A stretch of 64,000 bases of DNA from Candidatus Zixiibacteriota bacterium (GCA_024280775.1 JAJRPM010000004.1:391054-455053); one strand, 5' to 3'. Shown: positions 48,019 through 61,419, numbered from the stretch's first letter. The notes: generated by a model from the sequence alone, not told the origin. Made by a program: numbers and translations.

Positions 48019-49758
48019 TTACAGTTCTGCGTAGAAGGCAATCAGTATACCGAGCGCCATTCCGATTACTAATCCAAGTGTAAAAATCAATGACACTGAA
48101 GTGGTTTTAGCGGGAGTTGATTTTACTGCAGACTTATCCGAAGAAACTACTTCGGCGGGTTTGTTCTGAGACTCCTGATACTGCTCCCAATCACTGATGA
48201 ATTCATCGCAGGTTTGATACCTGTCGGCGCATTGTAGCGCCAGCAACTTGCGTAGCATTCGCTCTATTTCTTCTGGGATATGCGAGACAGCGCTATCAAG
48301 TAGCAACTCTCCATGTCGGGAAAAGTTTGGCGTGGCGCCGATTAGCATCTGATGGATAATCACTCCCAGCCCATAGATATCCCCTCGAGTGGAAGTGCCT
48401 TTCTCCGGCGGCGTATACCAGTTACGTTTGGCGCTGTAATGCGCGGGCATTCCGAAATCCGATAGTTTTGGAGTTCCGTCAGTGTCAAAAAGAATATTCG
48501 ACGGCCTTAGATTTCCATGAACAACATCATTCTTATGAGCAAATGAAAGTCCACTCGCGATTTGCAAACCAATTTTGAGAGCCTCATTAACATCATAAGT
48601 CCGCACAAGACGGTCTGCCAAAGAACCGCCTTGCGAATAGTCCATCACTATCACCGTTTTTCGTGCGTCACTACCTGCGCCGAGAATGCCAACAATGTTA
48701 TCATGCGAAAGATGCGATAGAATCTTGGCTTCTTTGATTCCAAGGTCTTCTACATTGTAGCGCTTGATGATTATCAGCTTCTTGGTCTGAGTATTCTCAA
48801 CCAGATAAGTTGCGCCATAGGAGTTTTCGCGAATTGTATCGAGATAACGACAGGCCCCGGTTATCGCTTCGATACCCTGGACTGAGGTAATCTTCTTGTC
48901 GCTCTTTTTCTCTGATTGATTGGATACTATCTCAAGTAAGGCGTCCTTGGCTTCCACTGCAGTTTGAAAGCGGTCTTTGGCTTTTGGCGCCAGGCATCTT
49001 TCGATGATAGTGTCAAAAGCGGCGGGCAGTTCGGGTTTCACTTGTGACGGCAATTTGAAATTCCCCAACGGTTTTTCACCGAGAAGAGTCTCATAGAGCA
49101 TCACACCCACAGCATAAATATCAGTTGTGCAATCTACATTCGCCGAGGAGAGCTTTTGCTCCGGTGACATATAAGCCATAGTGCCCATGATGATATCCGA
49201 GCTGGTTGCGTCAATTGCCGGAGTAGACATCAAATGCGCAATCCCGAAGTCTGCTACTTTGGCGTTGCCCTGCAGGTCTACCAGGATATTTGCAGGCTTG
49301 ATGTCGCGATGAATCACACCGTTCTTGTGGGCGTAGTCCAGACCTTTGAGGGTGTTGATTATTATCTCAATGCGGGTGACCAGCGGTACATCATTAGAGC
49401 AAACAATTTCTTTGAACGAAGCGCCTTCGACATACTCCATCACAAAATAGTAGCGTCCCTGCGAACTACCTCTATCAATCACCTGGACGATGTTAGGGTG
49501 ATTCAACTTGGCAATGGTAATCGATTCTCTATCAAAGCGCCGAACTATTTCCGGGTCACTAGACATTCTTGAAGAAAGCACTTTGACCGCCACCTCACGA
49601 TTCAAGCTCATTTGAATCGCTTTGAATATCTCGGCTATGCCACCCTCTCCGATTTTGGAAACTAGTTTATAGTCACCAAGAATCGGCGCGGACTTCATGA
49701 TAGTGGAAGTAGTCGGGCTTGGGGCTGGCTTAGGACGTTGTAGAACTTTGGTTTGCAT
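48019..49758 (-). CDS. Tail-anchored Ser/Thr protein kinase with a second, degenerate kinase-like domain
   Basis: Domain 1 has GEGGIAEIFKA, VAVKV, HRDIKPANILV, DFG and SPEQ. Domain 2 has LIIIKRY, VHGNLRPSNILF (HRD changed to HGN), DFG and PPEK. There is a single C-terminal TM helix, SLIFTLGLVIGMALGILIAFY. Confidence 0.85.
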   Translation of the reverse strand: MQTKVLQRPKPAPSPTTSTIMKSAPILGDYKLVSKIGEGGIAEIFKAIQMSLNREVAVKVLSSRMSSDPEIVRRFDRESITIAKLNHPNIVQVIDRGSSQGRYYFVMEYVEGASFKEIVCSNDVPLVTRIEIIINTLKGLDYAHKNGVIHRDIKPANILVDLQGNAKVADFGIAHLMSTPAIDATSSDIIMGTMAYMSPEQKLSSANVDCTTDIYAVGVMLYETLLGEKPLGNFKLPSQVKPELPAAFDTIIERCLAPKAKDRFQTAVEAKDALLEIVSNQSEKKSDKKITSVQGIEAITGACRYLDTIRENSYGATYLVENTQTKKLIIIKRYNVEDLGIKEAKILSHLSHDNIVGILGAGSDARKTVIVMDYSQGGSLADRLVRTYDVNEALKIGLQIASGLSFAHKNDVVHGNLRPSNILFDTDGTPKLSDFGMPAHYSAKRNWYTPPEKGTSTRGDIYGLGVIIHQMLIGATPNFSRHGELLLDSAVSHIPEEIERMLRKLLALQCADRYQTCDEFISDWEQYQESQNKPAEVVSSDKSAVKSTPAKTTSVSLIFTLGLVIGMALGILIAFYAEL

Positions 49759-49972: not shown

Positions 49973-50839
49973 TTATTTCATCAGAACCATCTTGCGGGTT
50001 TTGACTCCCAGGCCGGTTTTGATACGGTAGAAATACACGCCACTGGGGTTGGCGCTTGCGTCCCACTCTACCTCATGATTACCAGCGCCAAGCTCACCTG
50101 AGAACAAAGTTGTCACTCTTTGTCCCAGCAAATTGAAAACATCTAGAGTCACCGACGTTTTTGCCGGAAGTGAGAATCCTATCTTAGTGCTGGGGTTGAA
50201 AGGATTCGGGTAGTTTTGGTTTAGCTCGAACCTTTGCGGCAACGCGGGATCAGTAATGTCATCATTGACAGCAGTCGCGAGCAATTGAATATGTCCCGGT
50301 GTGAATGAAGGCAAGTAAATTATCAGCCCGGTAGGGTCGACTAAGTTGACTCTTCTGCGGCTCAAAATCAGCGGCGCGATGGAAACCGTGTCAACAGTGT
50401 TCAATGAATCGATGGTGATATTTTGCGGTTGAGCTGAGGGCGAAACGGTATACCAAAAAGTGCATATCAAACCGCTATCTACGGAGACAGTAGGAATTGG
50501 CGAAGAAAACGGCGGAATTATCAGTACACCAAAATATCCGGAATCAACATTCATGCTCTTAACTACAGTCATCGCCGGATCAAGAATAGTACCGATAAGA
50601 CTAATCGAATCCGGGGTCACATCCGCTGAATTATATCGCAGGGGTATGAGCCCTCCGGAAAACGCATCGGTGTTTCCACCAAGATAAACTCCTACGCCAA
50701 CAGTGGCCCCCGGAGCGCTAACTACAGTTTCTACATGAATACGCGCAACCGCGTTGGCTTCTGTGACAGGAAATGCCAAGAGCGTTATCGACGCTACTAA
50801 CAAAAACAACCTAGTACCGCTCGTTAAGATTTTTTTCAT
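49973..50839 (-). CDS. Secreted protein with a T9SS type-A C-terminal sorting domain
   Basis: The signal peptide begins MKKILTSGTRLFLLVASITLLAF. The C-terminus is canonical: LNQNYPNPFNPSTKIGFSLP...GVYFYRIKTG...KMVLMK. Confidence 0.75.
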   Translation of the reverse strand: MKKILTSGTRLFLLVASITLLAFPVTEANAVARIHVETVVSAPGATVGVGVYLGGNTDAFSGGLIPLRYNSADVTPDSISLIGTILDPAMTVVKSMNVDSGYFGVLIIPPFSSPIPTVSVDSGLICTFWYTVSPSAQPQNITIDSLNTVDTVSIAPLILSRRRVNLVDPTGLIIYLPSFTPGHIQLLATAVNDDITDPALPQRFELNQNYPNPFNPSTKIGFSLPAKTSVTLDVFNLLGQRVTTLFSGELGAGNHEVEWDASANPSGVYFYRIKTGLGVKTRKMVLMK

Positions 50840-51121
50840 ACTGCGAAATCCTTTCTCCGGGACTCCTTGCTCACAGTTCATGAACAAGTATTTGGCGCTT
50901 CATATTGGGTGAGAATTGCGCCTTCAAAGCTTATACATCAGAATATGCGCAACGACTCACATGCCTATTGAGCAAAAGGGGCGCCGGGCGCTAGGTCCCT
51001 CAAGCCAAAGGTGAAGCTAATACATCTGGGGGGATTTGTGCAAGACGCTGCACACTTGTACGGCCCGATATCGATTGGATTAAGTGGAGCAAGTTGGCGA
51101 AAAGAGTTTATTGGCGTATTG

Positions 51122-52654
51122 CTAGGATTCGTCGTCCCAGGTGGGTCGAATATTCACAAAAAGAGTCTTATTATCCCGCCAAACCAAGAATACCACTTCG
51201 GCGTTCTTGTTTTCGGCAATCTCCCTCAGAGCTGACTCAGCCTCCTCGACGGAGTTGATTTTACGGCCATTGATGGACTGAACGATATCACCGGGATACA
51301 GACTTGCCAGCGCCGCCCAACCTCCGGAGTTGACATCTGAAACCCATACTCCGTTGAACTCGTCCTCATCGAGATTGTAGGCCAGGTAATCATTAAAAAC
51401 CATATTGCGAACTTTGAATTCAAAAGAAGTGTCTTCGTAGGTTTTAGCTTCATCAAAGGTAATAGGAGAGCTACCCAATTCGACAACTATATCTACACGT
51501 TCAAACTCTCCGGTAGAATCAGCGCGCAGAGCCTGAAACTCAGTCACCGCTCCGGCGCCGAATTCAGCTACTGTCCGGCTGAAGTTCCGCGAGTTTTCCT
51601 CTCGGTCGACATCCAGATTGTCATCGTTGATAGCAACTATTACATCTCCCACTTTCAATCCGGATTTTTCCGCCGGGGAGTTTTTTGCCACATCGTTTAC
51701 AACCACACCTCCCTGGGCTTCCAGCTTCCAATACTTCGCTAAGTCTTTGCTGAGTGGCTGAAATGTCACACCCAGCCAGCCACGGTTTTTTATTCCAGGC
51801 TGAGGCGGATTCTCGATTAGTTTTTCCAGTCGATCTGCAGTCAGTATACCCAGCAGTGGATAGCCAGATAATCCATCACTTAGCGAACTAAGAAACGAAG
51901 TCGGATCAGAAAAATTCAACGGATTCTCCGGTGAGGCTATTTCGGCTAGAATGCCTACTGCGTCACCTCGCTCGTCATAAATAATGGAGCGTTCCTGACT
52001 TTCAGAGAAACCTACTAACAACGGAGACTTTTCAGGCTTCTCTAAGACCGCGGTTATCATGCCGATATCTGCGCCAATTGGTGGATCGACATACTCAGGA
52101 AGCAGGAAAAACAGCGCGGTCCATTCGCCGACTTTGAAGTCATAGCGCTTATGGAAACGCACATGGTCAAATGAGGTGCGAACGCTATCGGTGATTCTGC
52201 AAAATCCTATCCCCGAAAACTGGTCTATTCCCAGCCACTCAGCTTTCCATTCGTCACCGTTCAAACTTGTGACAGTCAGATTGTTGACCTCAAAACTGGA
52301 GGTTGTGCCATAATACGCGGCAACACCTGAGCCAAAATCAATAGTTGCGGCATCAAGAATCACTAGCCCGTCCTGGGTTACAATAGCCCCCATGCCACGA
52401 ACGTTGGCTTCAACCGGCTCGGAGCCAGTGGAAACTGAGACAGTTGCCTTAACTATCACTGTATACTTTTTCGCCTTTTCTTGCAGACGTCTAAAATCGA
52501 ATCGCTGGGCTTCGGATACTTGCGCAAGAGAGAGGACCACGGCAAACAGGATTGCCACGAAAACACCGAACTTGGCGAATCTGAATTTCAATGCGCTATC
52601 GCAGCCTGTATGTCGTTTCCAGTTCTTTATTTGTTCTATCATATACTTATTCAT
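51122..52654 (-). CDS. HtrA-like protein lacking the catalytic triad (pseudoprotease) with two PDZ domains
   Basis: The layout is collinear with HtrA. However, LVILDAATID replaces the TNxHV His context, GIGFCRI replaces DLAV, and no GNSGGP is present. PDZ-like segments are retained (GVVVNDVAKNSPAEKSGLKVGDVIVAIND; GVWVSDVNSGGWAALASLYPGDIVQSING). Confidence 0.6.
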   Translation of the reverse strand: MNKYMIEQIKNWKRHTGCDSALKFRFAKFGVFVAILFAVVLSLAQVSEAQRFDFRRLQEKAKKYTVIVKATVSVSTGSEPVEANVRGMGAIVTQDGLVILDAATIDFGSGVAAYYGTTSSFEVNNLTVTSLNGDEWKAEWLGIDQFSGIGFCRITDSVRTSFDHVRFHKRYDFKVGEWTALFFLLPEYVDPPIGADIGMITAVLEKPEKSPLLVGFSESQERSIIYDERGDAVGILAEIASPENPLNFSDPTSFLSSLSDGLSGYPLLGILTADRLEKLIENPPQPGIKNRGWLGVTFQPLSKDLAKYWKLEAQGGVVVNDVAKNSPAEKSGLKVGDVIVAINDDNLDVDREENSRNFSRTVAEFGAGAVTEFQALRADSTGEFERVDIVVELGSSPITFDEAKTYEDTSFEFKVRNMVFNDYLAYNLDEDEFNGVWVSDVNSGGWAALASLYPGDIVQSINGRKINSVEEAESALREIAENKNAEVVFLVWRDNKTLFVNIRPTWDDES

Positions 52655-52666
52655 AGCTTTGTGACA

Positions 52667-54118
52667 CTATTGAGTGTCTGCTTTGGTGGAGTCGGCGCCT
52701 TCTTCCTTGGCGGATTCTTTCTCCGGTTTGACTACTGCGAAACGAAGCGCCCCGCCGCGACGGAAGGTGAGCATGGTCAGCTCCTGTTTTGACTTTATTC
52801 GCTCTTGATAAAGTAAAGAAAACTGCGCCAAGTCAGCGATATCAATATCGTCGATACGCGTAATTACATCGCCTCCGCGCAATCCGCCTTCATTCGCCGG
52901 ACCGGAGCGTTTGACACCGGTTACATACACTCCCGCTTCTGAAGCAAGCTGATAATCCAAAGCCATCTGACGTGTGATTTCTTTAACCGTGAATCCCCAT
53001 TCGGGGCACTCCAAGTCTTCACCCTGCAGGACACCCAACTCACGTGTTCGCACCATAGCGGTGAATGTTTCTCCGCTACGCTGAACATCGAGCAACAATT
53101 CCGAGCCAATCGGATACTCAGCAATTGTGCGGTAGACATCGGGAAGCTCCTCATTGAATCGCGCCGAGACCTCCACACCATTGATAGATTTGATAATGTC
53201 ACCTGCCCTAAGGTGCGACAACTGCGCCGGGGCCTTTGAATCTACTGAGGCTATCAACACTCCGGATTCGTCTTTGGAACCAAACCAGTTTTCCAAATTC
53301 TGCAGTGGCTGAAAATGAACTCCTATCCAGCTACGGCTTACTTTTCCATGAGCTATCAATTCGTCCGAAATGGCGCGCACAATATTCGACGGAATTGAAA
53401 ATCCGATATTGTTTGCGAAGGTACTCGCCCGGCTATTCACTCCCACTACTAAGCCATCGAGATTCACCAACGGCCCTCCGGAGTTGCCAGGGTTTATCGC
53501 GGCGTCGGTTTGAAGCCATAGATTGTATTGTCCGGTTCTCTCACCTGACGGCAAACGCGCATCATCGGTAAAGTATCTATCGAGAGTTGAAATCACGCCG
53601 AAAGTTATCGAGCGGGCCAACGCAAGAGGTGAACCCATCGCAATTACTTGCTGACCTACCTGCAACGAATCCGAATCACCAAAAACTGCGACTGGCAGAA
53701 CTCCCTTGTATTCGCTTAGATCCAGCTTTATCACCGCCAAATCTGTCGAGGGATCACCACCGATAAGAACCGCATCAACTTGTTCTTTGTCATACAATGT
53801 GCAAAGTATGTTCTGCGCTTTTCCTGCAACATGATAGTTTGTCACTACATAACCATCGGCGTGGATGATTACTCCCGAACCAACAATAGATTGCTTGCGT
53901 TTCTTGCCGGTGCGATAGTCTGATATTACCGGCTGAATATGCACCAGCGCCGGCAGAACTGCATCGCGCGCGTGATACAAGCGCTCTTGCAGACTCTCGG
54001 CTGAGACACTGGGCTTGGCAAGTGTTAACGTAAGAGCAATTGCGAGTGGCGTAACAACAAACGCCTTGACTATTTCACGGCGCCTTAGCCCCGACCTGTT
54101 TCTATTAATGAACTTCAT
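52667..54118 (-). CDS. htrA: HtrA/DegP-family serine protease with two PDZ domains
   Basis: VTNYHVAG, TDLAVIKL and GNSGGPLVN are present, with two PDZ segments. Confidence 0.9.
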   Translation of the reverse strand: MKFINRNRSGLRRREIVKAFVVTPLAIALTLTLAKPSVSAESLQERLYHARDAVLPALVHIQPVISDYRTGKKRKQSIVGSGVIIHADGYVVTNYHVAGKAQNILCTLYDKEQVDAVLIGGDPSTDLAVIKLDLSEYKGVLPVAVFGDSDSLQVGQQVIAMGSPLALARSITFGVISTLDRYFTDDARLPSGERTGQYNLWLQTDAAINPGNSGGPLVNLDGLVVGVNSRASTFANNIGFSIPSNIVRAISDELIAHGKVSRSWIGVHFQPLQNLENWFGSKDESGVLIASVDSKAPAQLSHLRAGDIIKSINGVEVSARFNEELPDVYRTIAEYPIGSELLLDVQRSGETFTAMVRTRELGVLQGEDLECPEWGFTVKEITRQMALDYQLASEAGVYVTGVKRSGPANEGGLRGGDVITRIDDIDIADLAQFSLLYQERIKSKQELTMLTFRRGGALRFAVVKPEKESAKEEGADSTKADTQ

Positions 54119-54344
54119 AGTGTTAATGACGTGGCGCTACCTGGCTGTACCTGGTTTCTCTGGATTTACATCTTTGGGCATAGTTTGAATCTGTCATCGC
54201 AGACTCTCACAACGCTTCCTTCTGAGACATTATACCAGCGCGAGATACAATTATGCCACACAAACTTGCTCAAGAATTCGTTTTGGCAATCTTTTTTACG
54301 AAATCCCTGGCAAGCTTTTCGGCATAACCACACAGCAATTTCAG

Positions 54345-55925
54345 TTAATGGTTGGGCTGATTCCCCTGTGGCAAATCTGGAGGCCGAACCGGATTCGCAT
54401 AGGGCAATGGCGGAGGTTGCGGTGTCGGTGGTGGACTTGGCGGAGGTGGATGGCCCGGGCCGTAGCGACGTGGCTTCGGTGTATACTCTCTTTTCCCAAA
54501 GCGTGTCAGCACTACTGCCCCTATGCCGGAGAATATCGCAACCGAGGAGAATGTAATAGATACCACAATTAGGAAGACACCGATTCCAGAAAGAAATTCA
54601 GCGCTACTGGTCGCCAGCAGAAATGCAAGGGTCCAAAGCCCTATTATTACAAATATTCCAACAACAATGTTTCTAATACGACTAGCGCCTTCTTTTCCAT
54701 AGGCCGCTAGAGCCGTTTTGCCACTGAATTGTGAGTAGGCGACTATTCCAACCAGCAAGGCCACCGGAGTAGCAAGAGCTACGACAATCGCCACTGGGAT
54801 ACCTACAATTGTTATGCTCAACAGCACAAGCAAGAATGGCAGAGAAAGAAGCGACAGAAATCCAACCCATATTGTGGTCCAAAGGTGTGAGCCTATTGCG
54901 AGACTGGCTCGCGAGATAGAGTCAGGGGCCACTGAAAGCGAGACGAAAGCAACCATTATCAATAGAGCCGCTAGAGCGATAAAGATCGGAATCTCTCCGA
55001 AATCAATAATTCTGCGGTATTCTTTCTCGAATTCCTCACCGAACTCTATTCCTCTTTCAACTTCAGTTTCATCACCGGTAATCAAGCCACCAGAACGAAC
55101 TTTTATCGAAGGCGCCCGGACGTCACCATCTACTACCCCCGTACTTCCGACTACAACCTCCTTCAAAGAAGTCACATCCCCTTCAACAAGCCCGTCAATG
55201 GTTATTCTTTTGGAACTTTTAATTGATCGTGAAACATATTGCCCGGCTCTAACATGAACTTTGCGAGTGGTCATTTTGCGAACCCGTTTGACCTCTTCGG
55301 CCCAGCCTATATCACGATCACGACTTACCAAAACAGTGTCATCGTCGTTGAAATAGATCATCCCTTCACGACCACTCCCAGTTGAACGAACTTCATCCCA
55401 ACCCAAACGAAAAACTCCCAAACGACTATCGTATTCCCATTCACGTCCCAAAGAATCCTCGGCAGTCAAAACACCGTTCTCATAGTGGGAGTTTTCAAAG
55501 ACAGTGTCCGGAGGGGAAGTAGAAATCGACACCGGATTATCTGGTATTAGGATTATCTCTACTTCTGACTCTACTACAGGAGTTTCAGGGGCAACAGGAA
55601 ATTCCGGTTCTCCAGCTTTGACAACTACACCATTTGAATCAGCTGTAATAGTGATGTTGAAAGATTGAGATTCCGAAGCATCCTTGCTCTTCTTGTTATT
55701 TTTTTTCTCAGAATTGGATGCGGAAGATGATGTCGCGGCATCTGATGTTGCGGTAGCTTGGGCTTTTGCTTTGGCGGCTAACGAAACCGAAGGGATGAGA
55801 TACAGGACAGATAGCGTGAGCGCTGTCATTGTCAGTCGGAGAAGCGCCGAATCTCGGAGAAGCGCCGAATTGTTGCGGTGAAAACCGGGAAGTTCGAAAA
55901 GTTTCAGACAATTCATTTGAGCCAT
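54345..55925 (-). CDS. Membrane protein with a bactofilin-like beta-helix segment, a polytopic TM region and a proline-rich tail
   Basis: The bactofilin-type repeat is RITIDGLVEGDVTSLKEVVVGSTGVVDGDVRAPSIKVRSGGLITGD. About 5 TM helices follow. The C-terminus is PGHPPPPSPPPTPQPPPLPYANPVRPPDLP. The start is uncertain; an alternative Met lies at 55829. Confidence 0.55.
   Translation of the reverse strand: MAQMNCLKLFELPGFHRNNSALLRDSALLRLTMTALTLSVLYLIPSVSLAAKAKAQATATSDAATSSSASNSEKKNNKKSKDASESQSFNITITADSNGVVVKAGEPEFPVAPETPVVESEVEIILIPDNPVSISTSPPDTVFENSHYENGVLTAEDSLGREWEYDSRLGVFRLGWDEVRSTGSGREGMIYFNDDDTVLVSRDRDIGWAEEVKRVRKMTTRKVHVRAGQYVSRSIKSSKRITIDGLVEGDVTSLKEVVVGSTGVVDGDVRAPSIKVRSGGLITGDETEVERGIEFGEEFEKEYRRIIDFGEIPIFIALAALLIMVAFVSLSVAPDSISRASLAIGSHLWTTIWVGFLSLLSLPFLLVLLSITIVGIPVAIVVALATPVALLVGIVAYSQFSGKTALAAYGKEGASRIRNIVVGIFVIIGLWTLAFLLATSSAEFLSGIGVFLIVVSITFSSVAIFSGIGAVVLTRFGKREYTPKPRRYGPGHPPPPSPPPTPQPPPLPYANPVRPPDLPQGNQPNH
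55836..55871. repeat. 18-bp tandem duplication (2 copies, 17/18 identical)
   Basis: TCGGAGAAGCGCCGAATC is followed directly by TCGGAGAAGCGCCGAATT. If translated on the minus strand, it encodes NSALLR/DSALLR. Confidence 0.8.
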
Positions 55926-55939
55926 AGGCGCTTCCTACC

Positions 55940-57106
55940 TCAAAACCATCCCAAACGGATATCCCCGGAATCACTCTTCAGAGAAACCTGCGCCCCGCCT
56001 GCTCCTACTGAACCGGAAATCTCGCGCCGGGAAAAAGACCCGACCTCCATCGGCAGACCTTTGGTGTCGATATCTCCCGAGAGAGTCGAAAGCAGAACAT
56101 CGGCTCCGGCATTATCCGGAATCGAAAACGTGATTGAACCGGAAAGTGTCTCAACAGAGTAATCTCGCTCTGAAAACAACTCAGTGTTGACGCTAACTTT
56201 TCCTGTGTGGGTAAAGATATCGAGCGCGCCTCTATCCTGTTGAATAGAAAGATCGCCGGAAGTCGCCTTCAGACGCGCATCTCCATTGATTGAAGTGAGA
56301 GTAATATCACCTGAGGTTTGGATGATTGTTATTTCACCTGTGATATTATCACCTATCGTACTTCCCGCTCCACCATGAATAGTGACATTGCCGGCAATGG
56401 CGGTCATACGCAGGTCAGCAGTGGTGGAAGTCAATTCAACATCAGCGTCGAGGTCCTTCAATTCGATTAGTCCGCCTGATATATCTATTGTGACAGAGCC
56501 GACCACCTGATTTATCAGGGCTTCGCCGCTTTCCATCGAAATATCCAAAGCCCCGGTTATCCCACGAATATCCAGGTCACCATTGGAATTGTTCACCGTG
56601 ATGTTAGTTTCCGCAGGAACAGAAATCACATAATCCACCGACCCAAACCAATCATCGTCGGAGCCAACCAATCGCTCCCAGAAACTTCTGTGACGCTCTG
56701 ATACTTCTTCAAGCAAAGTTTCTAGCACAGCTTCATCATTGCGAGTGGAGAATCTCAATTCTACATGAGTCGCTACTTCGCGCGCCGCTGTTTCATCCAC
56801 TGCGTGAACAGTCTTGATTGCGTCGATTTTTATCTGATCGAGATGTTTAACTCCGACTATGGTGATATTGCCATTCTGATTGTTAATCCTAAGCGCCGCT
56901 CCTGTGGGCACAACCATCTCTTTGTGATAATCAAAACGAAAAGTTTTGGAATTCGCTGTCTTTGCTCCAACCATCAACGCTACGAAAACAAAGCCCGCCA
57001 GCAATCCTTTGTTGAATATTGTGTTGAATACTGGATATGTGGCTAATGACTTAGCAGAGTAGCGCATAGTCTTACTAGTCTTATAAGCAGTTGTCTGTTT
57101 TGGCAT
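55940..57106 (-). CDS. DUF4097-like beta-helical repeat protein with an N-terminal TM anchor
   Basis: It has one TM helix (LLAGFVFVALMVGA). Repeated G-D/S-I/V-x-I/L beta-strand units follow (NGDLDIRG, SGEALINQ, SGDITLTS, SGDLSIQQ, SGSITFSI, SGDIDTKG, SGDIRLGW). Confidence 0.6.
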   Translation of the reverse strand: MPKQTTAYKTSKTMRYSAKSLATYPVFNTIFNKGLLAGFVFVALMVGAKTANSKTFRFDYHKEMVVPTGAALRINNQNGNITIVGVKHLDQIKIDAIKTVHAVDETAAREVATHVELRFSTRNDEAVLETLLEEVSERHRSFWERLVGSDDDWFGSVDYVISVPAETNITVNNSNGDLDIRGITGALDISMESGEALINQVVGSVTIDISGGLIELKDLDADVELTSTTADLRMTAIAGNVTIHGGAGSTIGDNITGEITIIQTSGDITLTSINGDARLKATSGDLSIQQDRGALDIFTHTGKVSVNTELFSERDYSVETLSGSITFSIPDNAGADVLLSTLSGDIDTKGLPMEVGSFSRREISGSVGAGGAQVSLKSDSGDIRLGWF

Positions 57107-57128
57107 GGTTTCAGTTACGCATGATATT

Positions 57129-57710
57129 TCAGCGTATTCCTTTGAGAGATTTTTTCAATAGTTCCCGCGCCCTGAATATCCGGGCTTTGACTGTGCCGAC
57201 GGGCACATTCAATAGTTCGGCTATTTCCTCATAGGATTTATCATCCCGATGGCGGTACAGGATAACCTGCCGATACCTCTCGCTTAGGCTGTTAATCGCC
57301 TCGTCAATGGATAATCTCTGCTGTTTAGCCACCAATTCTCGTTCAGGATGAAACGAATAGTCGGCTACTTCAAATTCAACGGTTCCGTCGCCGGTATCAA
57401 TCTCTCTATCCAGCGACAGCGCATGAATCCGCTTTTTCCGCAGATGGTCGATTGAGGTATTCGCCGCAATTTTGCACAACCAGGTCGAAAAGCGAAACTC
57501 TGACTTGTACGAAGCCAAAGCGGTAAAGGCCTTCATAAAAGTCTCCTGAGCGATGTCCTCGGCGGTTTCCTCATTACGCACAATCTTGTACGCAACATGG
57601 TAAACTGTTTTCTGATAGCGGTTTACCAGACGCCAATAGGCGCGCTGATCGCCTTCGCGCGCGCTCTTTATGAGTTCATCATCTAGTTCCGCTGTCACAC
57701 AACACTCCAC
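57129..57710 (-). CDS. ECF-type RNA polymerase sigma factor
   Basis: Region 2 reads YHVAYKIVRNEETAEDIAQETFMKAF...FSTWLCKIAANTSIDHLRK. Region 4 reads SYEEIAELLNVPVGTVKARIFRAR. Confidence 0.85.
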   Translation of the reverse strand: MECCVTAELDDELIKSAREGDQRAYWRLVNRYQKTVYHVAYKIVRNEETAEDIAQETFMKAFTALASYKSEFRFSTWLCKIAANTSIDHLRKKRIHALSLDREIDTGDGTVEFEVADYSFHPERELVAKQQRLSIDEAINSLSERYRQVILYRHRDDKSYEEIAELLNVPVGTVKARIFRARELLKKSLKGIR

Positions 57711-57984
57711 ACTATTCTATACGCGATTACCGCGTCGCTGTTGCCCAATGTATTGATATTTCGAAGTCAGTATATCATGGCGCCACAAACCAGCGCATAC
57801 CCGATTACCGTCAGGAGAGTATACGAAATGGAACTCCATCAACAAAACCCTAGAGGCTATCCCCGGAGATTCGAAATGTAAAGTGGCGCGGGAGGGCTTG
57901 GGGCTTGTTGAAAAAGCCGAATCCTGTTGTGTTGGGTCTTGCGACGGCTTTTTTGCCGTCGTGTGACCCGACACTTTCTCTATG

Positions 57985-58035
57985 AAAAAGTGTGAGGTCG
58001 CAATTTTCGCAAAAGCGAAAATCAAGACCCCACAC
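57985..58035 (-). terminator. Intrinsic terminator after the DUF420/cox genes
   Basis: The outer stem is GTGTGAGGTC (57990-99) with GACCCCACAC (58026-35). It encloses a perfect inner hairpin, ATTTTCGC-AAAA-GCGAAAAT. On the minus strand it is followed by TTTTTC. A second hairpin (57934-57969, CGACGGC-T6-GCCGTCG core) lies just downstream. Confidence 0.7.
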
Positions 58036-58074
58036 AACTAATCGGCCTTTATCAACAAGCCCCTTGATTTAAGC

Positions 58075-58488
58075 CTAGCGCAAATAGAGCATAGCATAAA
58101 TCACTACGCCACTTACAGAAACGAACATCCATACCGGCCAGACTATTCTGGCGAGTTTTCGATGTTTCTTGAAATCACCTTTCGCTGCCCGTTTGACAAT
58201 AACCACTACAAATGGAGCCATCAAGGCCGCGAGGATTACATGAGGAATGAGGATAGCAAAATACAGGGGCCTGGTCCAATCATCGAACGGATAGGGCTTG
58301 GATCCGATATTTGCATGATAGATAACATAGCTGATCAGGAACAGGGTCGAGGTTATCAGCGCCGCCACCATGAAGCGCTGATGACGCTCACGGTCACCGC
58401 GCTTGATATTCCGGTATCCAAGGAAAAGCAATACGGCGCTGATTAGATTCAGCGTGGCATTTAGGGCAGGGAGGTCGCTAAGCGACAT
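58075..58488 (-). CDS. DUF420-family membrane protein (CtaM-like oxidase accessory candidate)
   Basis: A 137-aa protein with 4 TM helices. It contains LPALNATLNLISAVLL...GYRNIKRGDRERHQRFM. It lies directly downstream of the cox genes. Confidence 0.65.
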   Translation of the reverse strand: MSLSDLPALNATLNLISAVLLFLGYRNIKRGDRERHQRFMVAALITSTLFLISYVIYHANIGSKPYPFDDWTRPLYFAILIPHVILAALMAPFVVVIVKRAAKGDFKKHRKLARIVWPVWMFVSVSGVVIYAMLYLR

Positions 58489-58557
58489 AGGAATTGTTTC
58501 GTTAGAGGTTTGGAAGCCGGTCAGGCTCTCAGGAGCTACTTCGTGGCGCTTGAGTGT

Positions 58558-59031
58558 CTACTCAAAACCCCAATTTTCATCTTCGGACGCCGCAGTATCC
58601 TCTTCATCAGCAGCTTGCGCGGAGTCTCCTGCTGCCGCTGATGAATCCACTTTTAGTGAATCTGCCACAACGCCTTCGGAGGCTTTGTAGATAACTGCGG
58701 CGGGAACTATTGGTCCGCCGCGCTCCATATAGATTTTGTCCCGCTTGAGAGTGTCAAACATTGTGAGAGTTAAGAAGAACCCTAAGAACACCAGCGAACT
58801 CACAAACACTATTGCCAGAAACTTGTCGTCCCAGAACAGGTGCATGAAAATAAGCGCCACCAAAGAGGCTTTGAATATCGCTATGAGCATGGCGATAACC
58901 AAGTTCCACTCGCCGAAATCAATTGAAGCGGCGTAGACTGTAACAACTGTCATTACCAATAAGGCGAACGCGACTCCAAAGTATACGCTTAGAGGGAGAA
59001 TATGTGGTTTGTGTGCGGCTTTTGTGCTCAT
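58558..59031 (-). CDS. Cytochrome c oxidase subunit IV-like small membrane protein with an acidic C-terminal tail
   Basis: Three TM helices in the N-terminal roughly 100 aa. It sits immediately after coxIII. The Asp/Glu/Ala-rich tail is unusual. Confidence 0.55.
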   Translation of the reverse strand: MSTKAAHKPHILPLSVYFGVAFALLVMTVVTVYAASIDFGEWNLVIAMLIAIFKASLVALIFMHLFWDDKFLAIVFVSSLVFLGFFLTLTMFDTLKRDKIYMERGGPIVPAAVIYKASEGVVADSLKVDSSAAAGDSAQAADEEDTAASEDENWGFE

Positions 59032-59056
59032 ATATGCTGTTGTCCTACCAGATACG

Positions 59057-59722
59057 TTAACCCACCAAGTACAGAAGCGGGAAAAGGAATATCCAAATTA
59101 GATCGACTAAATGCCAGTAAAGTCCGGTCATCTCTATCGGGGTATAATAATCTGCTGAAAAATGGTTTTTCGAAGTACGGTACATCATCCACCCAATAGC
59201 AATCATTCCAGCAATCACATGAATCCCATGCAATCCGGTCATAGTGAAATAGACGCTGAAAAAGATGTGCGGGTTGGTTCCATCAATTTGTGTATTGGTG
59301 AAAAACTTACCCCACTCCAATCCATCATGGAACTTGTGTGAATACTCGATGAACTTGACTACTAGGAATGTACCAGCTAAAGCCAAAGTTGTGGCCAGAT
59401 TTATCTGAGTCCACATTTTATTGCCGACTTGCATCGAACGTATCGCCAAAGCCATCGTCAGTGAACTTGTGATTAGCACAACCGTATTGAGCGCTCCAAG
59501 ATTGACATCGAGCATCTTGTGTGCTTCATGGAACATCTCGGGATACCAGGAGCGATAAATTGCGTAAAAGCAAAACAGCCCTCCGAAAAACAGCACTTCG
59601 GTAACTAAGAATATCCAAAGCCCGAGCTTTGATGTTTCACGCTGTTGTTCAACGGTAGCGAAGTGGTGTTGCAGGAACTCAGGTCGTTCTTCGTGTCCTG
59701 TATTTGCGGTAGGTGTGTGCAT
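59057..59722 (-). CDS. coxC: Cytochrome c oxidase subunit III
   Basis: A heme-copper oxidase subunit III pattern: FILSEV-like LVTEVLFFGGLF ... YWHLVDLIWIFLFPLLYL. Confidence 0.9.
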   Translation of the reverse strand: MHTPTANTGHEERPEFLQHHFATVEQQRETSKLGLWIFLVTEVLFFGGLFCFYAIYRSWYPEMFHEAHKMLDVNLGALNTVVLITSSLTMALAIRSMQVGNKMWTQINLATTLALAGTFLVVKFIEYSHKFHDGLEWGKFFTNTQIDGTNPHIFFSVYFTMTGLHGIHVIAGMIAIGWMMYRTSKNHFSADYYTPIEMTGLYWHLVDLIWIFLFPLLYLVG

Positions 59723-59781
59723 AATTATCGTTACAAATTAGTCTCTGTAATTGAGTTTCTTGGTAATCAGCCCTCTTGAAA

Positions 59782-61419
59782 TCAGCTATTCACTTCTTCG
59801 GCGTCATACGGGTTTGTGCTCTTGAATATTACTTTATCATAAGGATACGCCTCATGTTCACAAACCGGTTGCTGGGCGAAATTGTGCAGATCCGGCGGCG
59901 AACTAGCGTGGGTCCATTCAAATGTAGAAGCTCCCCAAGGATTGCTTCCGGCTATTGGGCCGTGCTTAACCGAACGCCACAAGTATATAAGCATTACTAA
60001 GAACCCTGAGCCCAGAATAAACGCGCCAATTGACGAGAAGGCATGCATCGGTTGATACTGATCTATGTAGTTGAAGTATCTACGCGGCATTCCCTGTGAA
60101 CCCATTATGAATTGCGGAATAAAGGTAGCGTTGAATCCGATGAATATCAGCGCCCAGGCTATCCGCGCCCATTTCTCGCTATACATCCTGCCCCATATTT
60201 TCGGCCACCAATAATGTAATCCGCCGAGGAATGCGATAACCGTTCCACCCATCATCGTATAATGGAAGTGGGCAACAATGAAATATGTGTCATGCAAATG
60301 CAAATCCACAGCTAGAGTGCCCAGGAAAAGTCCGGTTAGACCACCAATAGTAAACAGGAACAGGAAGGCCAGCGCATATAGCATAGGTGTATCAAAACTT
60401 ATCGACCCTCGATACATCGTCGCCATCCAGTTGAACACCTTCACCGCCGAGGGTATTGCCACTGAGAATGTCAAGAATGAGAATATCATCGCCGCTAGCT
60501 CTGACTGACCGCTGGTGAACATGTGATGCCCCCAAACGATAAAACTCAAGAGAGCGATCGCCAAACTTGAATATGCAACAGCTCGATATCCAAACACTCT
60601 CTTGCGAGTAAAAGTAGCCATCAATTCACTAATAATCGCCATCCCGGGTAGAATCATAATGTACACAGCCGGGTGCGAATAGAACCAAAAGAAATGCTGG
60701 AACAGAACCGGATCGCCGCCCATCTTGGGATCAAATATTCCAATGCCCGCTCCTCGTTCAACTGCCAGCAAAAGTAAAGTTATCGCGAGAACCGGTGTCG
60801 CAAGCACCTGAATGATGGCTGTGGCATAGATACCCCATACAAACAAGGGCATCTTGAACCAAGTCATCCCGGGAGCGCGCATTTTGTGCACTGTGGCTAT
60901 AAAGTTTAGCCCGGTAAATATCGAGGAAAACCCGAGGATAAATGCCGCCATTACCATCATCACCACAGCGCCTTCGGTTTGTACACTATACGGTGTATAG
61001 AAAGTCCAACCGGTATCAATACCGCCAGCGACAATCGCGCCTAGAGCGAATAGCGCTCCGACTACATAGATATACCAACTGGCGAGATTCAGGCGAGGGA
61101 AGGCGACATCAATTGCCCCTAGCTGGAGCGGCAACACAAAGTTGCCCAGCGCCGCGGGTATCGACGGGATAATGAACAGGAATATCATAATCGCGCCATG
61201 CAAGGTGAACATTCTATTGTAGGTGTCGGCGCTCATCAATTGTGAGCCGGGTGAAAATAGCTCTAGACGCATCACCATTGCCAAAGCGCCACCGACTAAG
61301 AAGAATAGCGATATTGCCATCAGATACATCAAGCCGATACGCTTGTGGTCTTTGGTCAGCAACCATGACTTCAGCCCGGTCGGGGAGGTGAAATAATTAT
61401 GATCAGGTATGGTATTCAT
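59782..61419 (-). CDS. coxA: Cytochrome c oxidase subunit I
   Basis: Contains [25 protein letters not shown] and HFHYTMMGG. Confidence 0.95.

Follow-up and report, generated by a model that had tools for sequence, protein, structure and literature searches.

The window (the whole 64-kb stretch of DNA analysed here, which is from a Zixibacteria genome) contains five co-directional genes on the minus strand, separated by gaps of 22, 14, 226 and 12 nt, an arrangement in which the ORF list matches the first-pass annotation exactly; the domains that annotation had called for all five genes are likewise those returned by Pfam and NCBIfam. The genes, the promoter motifs predicted near them and two downstream neighbours are as follows.

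57720–57744, minus strand: predicted SigW-type ECF promoter (from motif; −35 element GCAAC at 57744–57740, 16-nt spacer, −10 element CGTA at 57723–57720)
57129–57710, minus strand: ECF sigma factor gene, 193 aa (ORF list)
55940–57106, minus strand: DUF4097 gene, 388 aa (ORF list); predicted exported Toastrack beta-helix protein, with signal peptide or signal anchor and all-beta domain from about residue 54
54345–55925, minus strand: DUF8173 gene, 526 aa (ORF list); predicted membrane protein, with signal peptide, disordered linker, beta-helix (about residues 223–290), five TM helices (about 309–476) and tail (477–526)
54229–54262, minus strand: putative sigma-70-type promoter in the 226-nt gap, with extended −10 element TGgTATAAT (54237–54229)
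52667–54118, minus strand: active HtrA gene, 483 aa (ORF list); predicted HtrA/DegP-family serine protease, with signal peptide, two PDZ domains and catalytic triad
51122–52654, minus strand: dead HtrA gene, 510 aa (ORF list); predicted catalytically dead HtrA paralog, with signal peptide, degenerate protease fold and two PDZ domains
49973–50887, minus strand: T9SS-sorted secreted protein (Por_Secre_tail)
48019–49758, minus strand: tail-anchored Ser/Thr kinase (Pkinase in two stretches, C-terminal TM helix at residues 551–579)

Conservation of the cluster

The arrangement is far beyond chance: it is a real gene cluster, kept across Zixibacteria. In a synteny sample of 72 species-level loci, defined by a sigma factor at least 50% identical to that of the window (orthologs 54–94% identical, mostly from Zixibacteria), the DUF4097 gene is the +1 gene in 61 of the 69 loci with room, and the DUF8173 gene is next in line in 53 of 58 loci by BLAST, that is, in essentially all; inspection of three BLAST-negative loci (L066, L068 and L069) found a DUF8173 gene in each. 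DUF8173 is a universal neighbour of this sigma factor. The genes for sigma, DUF4097 and DUF8173 stand side by side in about 70 species, with median intergenic gaps of 14 and 23 nt across orthologous loci, and the gap sizes leave no space for a hidden gene between operon members. On the sigma strand, the HtrA gene and its dead paralog follow in 22 of 45 loci. The first-pass annotation had described a conserved, ECF-headed, envelope-related cluster, and synteny over the 72 loci bears this out. The gaps of 22 and 14 nt in the window strongly support the prediction that the sigma gene is co-transcribed with the DUF4097 and DUF8173 genes.

The sigma factor, its promoter and the search for an anti-sigma factor

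The sigma factor has the make-up of an ECF (group 4) sigma-70 factor: at about 190 aa, it is predicted to comprise sigma-2 and sigma-4 with no sigma-3, as judged from Pfam matches to Sigma70_r2 (PF04542; 72.7 bits) and r4_2 (PF08281; 69.4 bits) with no match to r3, and from the NCBIfam match to TIGR02937 (124 bits vs. a cutoff of 42.9). Region 2.2 is canonical (DIAQETFMKAF) and is invariant among the orthologs. Classification of the ECF sigma factor, which the first-pass annotation had left to a later check, places it nearest to SigW by model and by PDB search alike, below the equivalog level. The top NCBIfam model is SigW (PRK09641; 179.2 bits, under the equivalog cutoff of 209); the score against TIGR02948 is 160 bits vs. 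a cutoff of 243, which likewise falls short of a SigW equivalog. In the PDB, the strongest match is to B. subtilis SigW (5wuq; E = 3.9e-35), and RpoE (1or7) matches with E = 6e-27. We conclude that the sigma factor is, by sequence comparison, SigW/RpoE-like, with B. subtilis SigW the closest.

The full promoter consensus of SigW is TGAAAC-N16-CGTA. The predicted ECF promoter in the window stops 9 nt short of the annotated GTG start of the sigma gene. The strict motif G[AC]AAC-N16-CGTA has a single occurrence in the 64-kb window, before the sigma gene, and is kept in the closest relative (L004). Across the wider set of loci, TGAAAC-N16-CGTA, with the −35 element known from B. subtilis SigW (PMC6713349), is found at a fixed position in 45 of 73 sigma-upstream regions (about 0.008 per region expected by chance), and the A that follows CGT is invariant (44/44) though the search pattern left that base free. 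Because the sigma gene lies behind its own SigW-type promoter, positive autoregulation of sigma is predicted, and is strongly supported by these comparisons. Just upstream of the ECF motif, many loci also carry a CTTGT...TATTAT element.

No zinc-finger or RskA-type anti-sigma factor had been recognised beside the sigma gene on first pass, and this observation stands: an ORF with an HxxxCxxC motif is found nowhere in the 64-kb window, and the operon proteins give no match to RseA or RseB in Pfam or NCBIfam. The sigma factor was also compared with SigW on a further attribute, an RsiW-type zinc-finger anti-sigma factor at +1, and departs from it there: the +1 gene is the DUF4097 gene. Anti-sigma queries across the loci returned matches only to partners of a second ECF sigma factor. 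For the nearest relatives of the sigma factor outside the phylum, an HxxxCxxC anti-sigma factor is encoded at +1 in six of eight loci.

Exported and membrane partners of the sigma factor

The DUF4097 protein belongs to the DUF4097/Toastrack family by its Pfam match (62.3 bits vs. a cutoff of 22.9), and its AlphaFold model (pLDDT 81.8 overall, below 50 for residues 1–50) has 4qrk (probability 1.00) and 4opw (0.99) as top Foldseek matches. The match to the LiaG equivalog in NCBIfam reaches 66.9 bits vs. a cutoff of 285 and covers the C-terminal half only. A link of DUF4097 proteins to envelope-stress modules, noted at first pass, holds: in B. subtilis the Toastrack gene yvlB is part of the core regulon of sigma-W (PMC3498285). 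Toastrack domains are also tied to proteases by natural fusions of Toastrack with Trypsin_2 and with caspase domains.

The third protein had been termed bactofilin-like, a description that is correct at the level of the domain: residues 220–285 match Bactofilin (PF04519; 34.7 bits vs. a cutoff of 27.9), and Foldseek retrieves bactofilin 6ria with probability 0.98. The family itself is a different one. Searching with a profile built from the window protein plus orthologs brings up proteins annotated as PF26514/DUF8173 (E = 1e-39 to 1e-12), and the window protein has in common with these a signal peptide, GDV-type beta-helix repeats, ITI[VI]GIP in the TM bundle and a final GxGAVVLTRFG. These matches assign the protein to the large DUF8173 family (PF26514), for which over 5,000 cluster representatives were counted at E ≤ 1e-30 and whose name is absent from the literature searched. 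The bactofilin-type beta-helix is predicted to be periplasmic and to sit on a five-helix membrane bundle, for which AlphaFold gives a pLDDT of about 90; the signal peptide, the five TM helices and the predicted periplasmic location argue against a cytoskeletal bactofilin, which would be soluble or peripheral in the cytoplasm. In the model, what lies in the cytoplasm is short or disordered. The Pro-rich tail is positively charged by hydropathy and charge analysis, and the protein also has a short conserved cytoplasmic exit motif, LTRFGxR.

The fourth gene encodes an HtrA/DegP serine protease that is predicted to be active: Pfam finds Trypsin_2 (105.7 bits) and two PDZ domains, NCBIfam gives 322 bits for the Do-family model TIGR02037 (below the subfamily cutoff of 416), the catalytic triad is contained in TNYHVAG, TDLAVIKL and GNSGGPL, and all of the active HtrA copies compared (25/25) have the H-D-S triad. 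In the product of the fifth gene, Pfam and NCBIfam detect two PDZ domains and no protease domain. This protein aligns end to end with that of the fourth gene, with other residues at the triad columns; its residues 123–347 still align to DegP/HtrA protease domains in the PDB, and triad residues are retained in none of 24 dead HtrA orthologs. The results strongly support the assignment of the fifth gene product as a conserved pseudo-protease that keeps the protease fold and both PDZ domains.

The 226-nt gap that precedes the HtrA pair in the window contains the putative sigma-70-type promoter listed above; it contains no ECF motif and no terminator-like site, and the block TTGTGTGGC...TGGTATAATG within it is kept between the window and L004. 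Among 48 loci of relatives, 19 have the ECF motif before the Toastrack-2/HtrA block (vs. about 0.5 expected), and in five loci it is found before an HtrA gene on the opposite strand. Comparison of these upstream regions strongly supports two predictions: that the HtrA pair is ECF-driven in relatives and served by a housekeeping-type promoter in this genome, and that this genome has lost the second Toastrack gene from the HtrA block. From the relatives we infer that the HtrA pair of the window may nevertheless belong to the regulon. The proposal that the five genes form one unit holds only in part and has to be qualified for the HtrA pair, which here has a sigma-70-type promoter of its own and no ECF motif, whereas relatives carry the ECF motif before the block.

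Candidate modes of control of the sigma factor

We favour, with a rough probability of 0.55, the reading that the cluster represents, in Zixibacteria, an envelope-stress module of the SigW/RpoE type. The cluster resembles B. subtilis SigW-RsiW in its sigma factor, in its promoter consensus, in having a Toastrack gene (yvlB in B. subtilis) under control and in its envelope function; it differs in that there is no RsiW-type zinc finger at +1, in that the SigW equivalog score is 179 vs. 209 bits, in that DUF8173 and an exported Toastrack protein are encoded inside the sigma operon, and in that the host is an FCB-group diderm. With the E. coli RpoE-RseA-RseB-RseC/DegS/DegP system it shares an RpoE-like sigma factor, membrane and periplasmic operon partners, and linked HtrA-family PDZ proteases (here under the same sigma factor's predicted promoter in relatives); the likeness is an analogy of layout only, however, since RseA and RseB homologs are absent here, the partners are beta-helix proteins, and the proteases are an active DegP/Q-like enzyme with two PDZ domains and a dead paralog, not DegS. 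The Toastrack stress systems (LiaF/LiaG, VraT, YvlB; PMC11237479) have the same fold and the same theme of membrane-proximal stress signalling, and a sigma factor is operonically linked in some Toastrack contexts (Ravi et al., 2024, PMC11237479). Toastrack has been argued to be intracellular (Ravi et al., 2024, PMC11237479), whereas both Toastrack proteins here have a signal peptide and no other TM helix and are predicted to be periplasmic; the cluster also differs from those systems in that it lacks PspC, a LiaI-LiaF-TM domain and a two-component system, with a LiaG score of 67 vs. 285 bits.

According to the mechanism that we propose, DUF8173 would assemble at the membrane with the Toastrack protein or proteins into a sensing complex that faces the periplasm and controls sigma, with DUF8173 holding sigma via its cytoplasmic loops and tail. 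Envelope damage would lead to release of sigma, and the HtrA pair may bring this about by cleavage, as the analogy to DegS, RseA and RseB would suggest. The active HtrA and its pseudo-protease paralog form the predicted proteolytic arm of the module, which is among the better supported parts of this reading. DUF8173 is favoured because no canonical anti-sigma factor is encoded in cis and because no other operon product exposes surfaces in the cytoplasm; of the proteins encoded in cis it is the likeliest to hold sigma, a role that we assign to it tentatively. Putative anti-sigma factors with two to six TM helices exist, in one ECF group an anti-sigma domain is predicted on the C-terminal side of the TM helices, and SigY requires both YxlC and YxlD (PMC7826278). 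Such polytopic and multi-component anti-sigma factors provide a precedent for a regulator based on DUF8173, but no sequence relationship between them and DUF8173 was detected. A search for a Zixibacteria-specific cytoplasmic domain in DUF8173 found none, and Pro-rich tails are present also in DUF8173 members that have a +1 partner.

In other phyla DUF8173 likewise lies downstream of an ECF sigma factor (L084/L085, L086, L092, L093 and the P0131 contig), as the +2 gene of the ECF operon in five of six sampled distant relatives, and the L084 operon also has a DUF4097 gene and a TGAAAC-type promoter. These operons differ from that of Zixibacteria, where +1 is an exported Toastrack protein, in keeping at +1 a separate small membrane protein, in one case a zf-HC2 anti-sigma factor and in the others a protein with no Pfam match. 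Because this separate protein precedes DUF8173, DUF8173 is probably not the sigma-binding component in those phyla. A broader reading, which we regard as unlikely, is that DUF8173 proteins are an unrecognised class of ECF membrane regulators: DUF8173 would be a third component beside a small anti-sigma factor in most phyla, and in Zixibacteria, with the canonical anti-sigma factor lost, DUF8173 together with the exported Toastrack protein and HtrA/pseudo-HtrA would itself sequester and release the SigW-like sigma factor. If correct, this would define a new route from a periplasmic beta-helix sensor to transcription.

A possible, if doubtful, alternative is that the anti-sigma factor acts in trans from elsewhere in the genome and that DUF4097, DUF8173 and the HtrA pair serve the regulon only as effectors of envelope repair or buffering, as yvlABCD and pspA do for SigW. 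The nearest relatives outside the phylum are regulated by a ZAS at +1, so the sigma factor is likely still to have a surface for binding a ZAS. Within the SigW regulon, yvlB is a gene of the effector type; operons of other phyla place DUF8173 and DUF4097 after a separate anti-sigma gene; and canonical ZAS proteins are encoded in Zixibacteria for another ECF sigma factor. The alternative is harder to reconcile with the 64-kb window, which has no ZAS-motif ORF, with the locus matches, which are second-ECF partners only, and with the typical +1 position of anti-sigma genes (one is present in 114 of 157 ECF groups; PMC7826278). An autoregulated sigma factor with no co-expressed inhibitor would, moreover, be an unusual design, and the +2 position of DUF8173 in distant ECF operons suggests a role in signalling, not that of a generic effector. 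Control with no anti-sigma factor at all appears improbable: sigma would be set by an upstream housekeeping-type promoter with positive feedback, or a downstream Ser/Thr kinase would act on sigma or its partners. The CTTGT...TATTAT element near the ECF motif and a tail-anchored kinase or pseudokinase at the cluster end in 14 of the 38 loci with room are consistent with such control, as is the existence of 16 ECF groups without a known regulator (PMC7826278); but the kinase is absent in the other 24 loci, and positive autoregulation with nothing to restrain it would leave the system permanently on. The canonical region 2.2 found here is also unlike that of phosphorylation-dependent ECF sigma factors.

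Highly improbable is the proposal that the DUF4097 protein is itself the anti-sigma factor, binding sigma by its short N-terminus, a reading that conservation largely argues away. The gene does occupy the +1 position usual for an anti-sigma gene, as the first-pass annotation had pointed out, 22 nt past the sigma gene, with a start that overlaps the sigma gene end in some relatives, and in the window protein as many as about 34 residues may lie ahead of the hydrophobic segment; the TM-anchored stand-in role that was attached to this position does not hold up. The N-terminus is unconserved, and most orthologs begin with a signal peptide of about 20–25 aa whose cleavage site is AxA-like. Even when taken at its longest, the segment ahead of the hydrophobic core has a median length of 8 residues among 65 orthologs and never exceeds 39, and in the window protein an in-frame alternative start at Met14 would shorten it. 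Class I anti-sigma factors (ZAS, RskA and RseA-type) have a cytoplasmic helical domain of about 80–90 residues N-terminal to the TM helix; membership of this class was rejected for the DUF4097 protein, in which the corresponding stretch is at most 34 residues, unconserved and within the low-pLDDT region. In addition, the gene is missing from eight Zixibacteria loci that retain sigma and DUF8173, and in L084 it shares an operon with the genuine zf-HC2 anti-sigma factor. Sequence and model together strongly support the prediction that the DUF4097 protein is secreted, has no cytoplasmic domain and is not the anti-sigma factor.

Both genes downstream of the cluster occur in part of the phylum: among the 38 loci with room, a gene for the T9SS-sorted protein follows on the same strand in 13, and the kinase gene follows in the 14 noted above. 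The second domain of the kinase is degenerate, with HGN in place of the expected HRD.

The five-gene cluster and its conservation

ECF sigma factors are among the chief signalling devices of bacteria, and how one works is commonly deduced from the anti-sigma gene at +1, the first position after the sigma gene. The ORF list of the window matches exactly the five consecutive minus-strand genes of the first-pass annotation:

57129-57710 (-): sigma factor, 193 aa; gap to next gene, 22 nt
55940-57106 (-): DUF4097 protein, 388 aa; gap to next gene, 14 nt
54345-55925 (-): "bactofilin-like" protein (DUF8173), 526 aa; gap to next gene, 226 nt
52667-54118 (-): HtrA (gene 4), 483 aa; gap to next gene, 12 nt
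51122-52654 (-): HtrA-like protein (gene 5), 510 aa; last of the five

Pfam and NCBIfam searches bore out the domain calls, giving Sigma70_r2 and r4_2 for the sigma factor, DUF4097/Toastrack for the second protein, Bactofilin within a multi-helix hydrophobic protein for the third, and Trypsin_2 with two PDZ domains for gene 4; in gene 5 they detected two PDZ domains and no protease domain. No Rfam family was found in 50800-58700 at E <= 1.

Aligned with three orthologs, the window sigma factor served as the query for a scan of species-representative genomes, which yielded 72 loci (L-handles below) with sigma factors 51-94% identical, nearly all of them either labelled Zixibacteria or "Ignavibacteria" MAGs with the same locus; the closest relative is JAJRPJ010000008.1. 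We called ORFs in every locus and then compared them with the window proteins. DUF4097 directly follows sigma in 61 of the 69 loci with room, and the third protein lies at most two genes onward in 53 of 58 by BLAST; inspection by eye of three BLAST-negative loci (L066, L068, L069) revealed a protein of the same architecture, ending in ...LTRLGTRPKD. Eight loci lack DUF4097 and keep the third protein. Median gaps are 14 nt between sigma and DUF4097 and 23 nt between DUF4097 and the third gene. Further downstream are HtrA and its dead copy on the same strand (22/45 loci), a T9SS-sorted protein (13/38) and a Ser/Thr kinase (14/38). Co-occurrence across genomes, which had been proposed as a check of the cluster, thus extends to the sigma/DUF4097/DUF8173 adjacency in most loci and to the HtrA pair in part.

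The sigma factor and its promoter

The top NCBIfam model for the window sigma factor is SigW (179 bits; the equivalog cutoff of 209 is not reached, which leaves the protein outside the SigW equivalog), and among solved structures B. subtilis SigW (5wuq, E = 3.9e-35) matches best, with AlgU/RpoE-type sigma factors next. As to ECF group, the main text of Casas-Pastor et al. mentions neither DUF4097 nor bactofilin. We consider a phosphorylation-dependent, ECF43-like sigma factor unlikely: region 2.2 is canonical and does not resemble that type.

With sigma upstream regions aligned on codon 10, the SigW-type motif G[AC]AAC-N16-CGTA (the "ECF motif"; consensus TGAAAC-N16-CGTAt) is present in 45 of 73, as against a chance expectation of ~0.008 per region. 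Its position is fixed, 54-67 nt before codon 10 in all regions carrying it, and the A after CGT is invariant, though the search pattern left that position free. We take the full TGAAAC-N16-CGTA motif to be the SigW consensus. SigW binds TGAAAC as its -35 element (PMC6713349). In many loci a housekeeping-like CTTGT...TATTAT element lies just 5' of the motif. The window element, GCAAC-N16-CGTA at 57720-57744, is the sole strict site in 64 kb and is conserved in the closest relative. A mere 9 nt separate the end of its -10 CGTA from the annotated sigma GTG (57708-57723), so that either the sigma mRNA has no leader or translation begins instead at codon 5, an in-frame GTG (57698). Since a SigW-type promoter precedes its own gene, the sigma factor is very probably autoregulated. 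One-mismatch matches in the window number 4, against 3.7 expected by chance, and we do not regard other such sites there as regulon members.

By analogy, we conclude that the cluster works like a SigW/RpoE envelope-stress module: the sigma type and promoter logic are alike, and Toastrack and HtrA appear among the targets here too. It is phylum-wide, and its make-up is genuinely unusual. The cluster has no member of the RsiW- or RseA-type partner families, and the DUF4097 protein is not a member of LiaG. Across an entire phylum, a canonical-looking SigW/RpoE-type sigma factor sits behind a probable autoregulatory promoter and lacks any recognisable inhibitor in cis; two predicted periplasm-facing beta-helix proteins take the inhibitor position.

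Candidates for the anti-sigma factor

Among the nearest non-Zixibacteria relatives of the sigma factor (36-40% identity), six of eight loci have a protein with HxxxCxxC, the zinc-finger anti-sigma motif, at +1. The first-pass annotation had noted no recognisable anti-sigma factor beside the window sigma gene, and this holds more widely: an HxxxCxxC ORF is absent throughout the 64 kb. The gaps between the genes are too small for a hidden anti-sigma ORF, and an upstream 106-aa ORF (57717-58037) was rejected as overlapping the promoter and a lineage-specific insertion. BLAST of anti-sigma queries against the loci matched only the partners of a second, divergent ECF sigma factor (~30% identical), which in some Zixibacteria lies nearby on the opposite strand, is not in the window, and has a canonical HxxxCxxC anti-sigma factor and a short DegS-like HtrA alongside. 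In L001 and L002 this unit is head-to-head with the SigW-like operon. Its positions in four loci are:

L001, 4448-6711: second ECF unit
L002, 4474-6694: second ECF unit
L056, 584-2874: second ECF unit
L064, 106-2266: second ECF unit

The DUF4097 protein had been put forward as a stand-in for the anti-sigma factor, a proposal that we reject. Orthologs at 30-50% identity begin with ordinary signal peptides, their N-termini do not align, and an AxA-like site immediately precedes a conserved mature start, K-T/E-F/Y-x-F. At its longest, the segment preceding the hydrophobic core has a median length of 8 residues over 65 orthologs (IQR 6-14, maximum 39); the window protein, with 34, is an outlier and has an in-frame Met14. 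In its AlphaFold model (pLDDT 81.8) residues 1-50 are unstructured and an all-beta helix starts at residue 54; Foldseek with this model retrieved 4qrk and 4opw, the two named Toastrack exemplars (PMC11237479). The N-terminus is therefore unconserved, too short and modelled with low confidence; moreover, the gene is missing in some lineages, and elsewhere a zinc-finger anti-sigma factor is encoded in the same operon. That operon, in another phylum (L084/L085), comprises sigma, a zf-HC2 anti-sigma factor, DUF8173, DUF4097 and DUF8173 behind a TGAAAC-type promoter. Sequence and model together point to an exported Toastrack protein and not an anti-sigma factor. In B. subtilis the core SigW regulon includes yvlB, which encodes a Toastrack protein (PMC3498285).

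Searching with a profile of the window third protein and 24 orthologs brought up proteins that carry the PF26514 annotation, some of them fused to RDD; a context look-up identified PF26514 as DUF8173. Common to the family are a signal peptide, beta-helix repeats of the form GDVxxxGGxV, an ITI[VI]GIP motif in the helix bundle, and a closing GxGAVVLTRFG, after which comes a variable tail, often rich in Pro. At E <= 1e-30 an exhaustive profile search returned 5,189 cluster representatives (clustering at 50% identity), and no paper in the literature searched names the family. The AlphaFold model of the window protein (mean pLDDT 67) reaches ~90 for the beta-helix (223-290) and five TM helices (309-476), with linker 56-140 and the tail disordered. 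Judging by the signal peptide, the five helices and the basic tail (7 K/R), we predict a periplasmic beta-helix and a cytoplasmic tail. Foldseek matched the bactofilin part alone (6ria, probability 0.98) and found no solved relative of the helix bundle in the PDB.

By gene order, DUF8173 is the obligate partner of the SigW-like sigma factor, and across phyla members of this uncharacterised and very large family are found again and again at +2 of ECF operons. Distant members lie at +2 in an operon of sigma, small membrane protein and DUF8173 in five of six cases sampled. Operons from other phyla include:

L084/L085, 3832-7826: ECF operon with DUF8173 at +2
L086, 3962-6776: ECF operon with DUF8173 at +2
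L092, 1926-4811: ECF operon with DUF8173 at +2
L093, 721-2740: ECF operon with DUF8173 at +2

One of their +1 proteins is a zf-HC2 anti-sigma factor; the rest, membrane proteins just 147-194 aa long, match no Pfam family, and the three translated have a short N-terminal cytoplasmic stretch. L084 also has a PrsW protease gene nearby, besides DUF4097 and the second DUF8173, and RsbR/S/T/U-like stressosome genes lie downstream of the DUF8173-RDD gene in L086/L087.

On circumstantial evidence we slightly favour the reading that DUF8173 in Zixibacteria took over sigma sequestration (probability about 0.35), because it would be universally co-transcribed with an autoregulatory sigma factor and recurrently occupies +2 in ECF operons. 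It is also the sole operon product with predicted cytoplasmic surfaces, and there is precedent for putative anti-sigma factors that are polytopic and for regulators made of two proteins (PMC7826278). Against this reading, a separate +1 protein accompanies DUF8173 in other phyla, and no cytoplasmic addition specific to Zixibacteria, which might have signalled a new function, was found, Pro-rich tails being family-wide. An unlinked anti-sigma factor, encoded elsewhere in the genome, we consider only a little less likely; were it to exist, the cluster would be merely a SigW-like regulon core with nothing out of the ordinary. The absence of any anti-sigma factor at all remains a third reading. Two points reach further: DUF8173 recurs at +2 in ECF operons, and Toastrack domains can be exported and occur fused to proteases. 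Should both hold, two large uncharacterised families would gain a role, and the picture of Toastrack as a cytoplasmic scaffold beneath the membrane would be refined.

The HtrA pair, its promoters and the neighbourhood

The reported pairing of an active with a triad-less HtrA is confirmed by alignment of the two paralogs: gene 4 has H, D and S in TNYHVAG, TDLAVIKL and GNSGGPL, and gene 5 has other residues. The N-terminal half of gene 5 is a degenerate protease fold, as DegP/HtrA protease domains of PDB entries align with its residues 123-347. The H-D-S triad is intact in 25 of 25 active orthologs, and not one triad residue survives in the 24 dead paralogs; the dead copy is always directly 3' of the active gene, often overlapping it. 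Given the uniform triad statistics, the dead HtrA is ancient and has been maintained; we infer that it serves the active enzyme as a PDZ-bearing subunit with a regulatory or chaperone role.

In 48 loci a second exported Toastrack gene (Toast_rack_N + LiaF-like_C, ~284 aa) lies between DUF8173 and HtrA, often with an ECF motif upstream; examples are:

L005, 12857-13714: second Toastrack gene
L006, 3665-4519: second Toastrack gene

The published view of Toastrack is intracellular (PMC11237479), whereas both Toastrack proteins here are predicted to be exported. Tblastn found no second copy in the window, and the gene has been lost from the window, its closest relative, L003, L065 and L072, leaving the 226-nt gap (54119-54344). 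Natural fusions of Toastrack to Trypsin_2 (P0115, P0120) and to a caspase-like protease (P0061) suggest that the domain can act as a protease-associated binding module. In P0115 and P0120 Toastrack is C-terminal to the HtrA-type Trypsin_2, where PDZ domains usually sit.

A second ECF motif lies at or just past the end of the third gene, directly before the Toastrack-2/HtrA block, in 19 of 48 loci (~0.5 expected) and in three more masked by over-long ORF calls; in five loci with HtrA on the opposite strand the motif precedes HtrA. HtrA would thus be a conserved target. No ECF motif was found in the window's 226-nt gap, the sole candidate having the wrong spacing and being unconserved in the closest relative, L003 and L072. 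Conserved in this gap between the window and its closest relative is instead a sigma-70-type element with an extended -10, TTGTGTGGC...TGgTATAAT; the gap has no terminator-like site. The window protease pair therefore has a predicted promoter of its own, with read-through also possible. The proposed five-gene unit accordingly stands as a conserved neighbourhood; a single operon is not demonstrable.

At the cluster end, behind the T9SS-sorted protein, the Ser/Thr kinase (48019-49758, minus strand) has a second, degenerate kinase domain with HGN replacing HRD, making a second live/dead pairing in the neighbourhood; it is tail-anchored by a C-terminal TM helix (551-579) and lacks an extracellular domain. 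Between the sigma promoter and the DUF420 gene lies a ~155-nt element (57905-58060, read in minus-strand sense) that the closest relative lacks; it occurs once in the window, has no Rfam match, and folds into a highly stable multi-branch structure, a 16-bp outer stem around three hairpins (MFE -77.4 kcal/mol vs. -40.2 for shuffles, z = -9.6). Candidate identities are an insertion of terminator-like type, a MITE-like element and an unclassified RNA. Upstream on the same strand, 58075-61419 (-) contains the DUF420 gene and cytochrome oxidase subunit genes, including an ORF matching the L003 COX3 gene and, by inspection, a 545-aa subunit-I-like ORF. These neighbours recur in L003 and the closest relative and not in more distant loci; the adjacency is therefore lineage-specific and lies outside the module.
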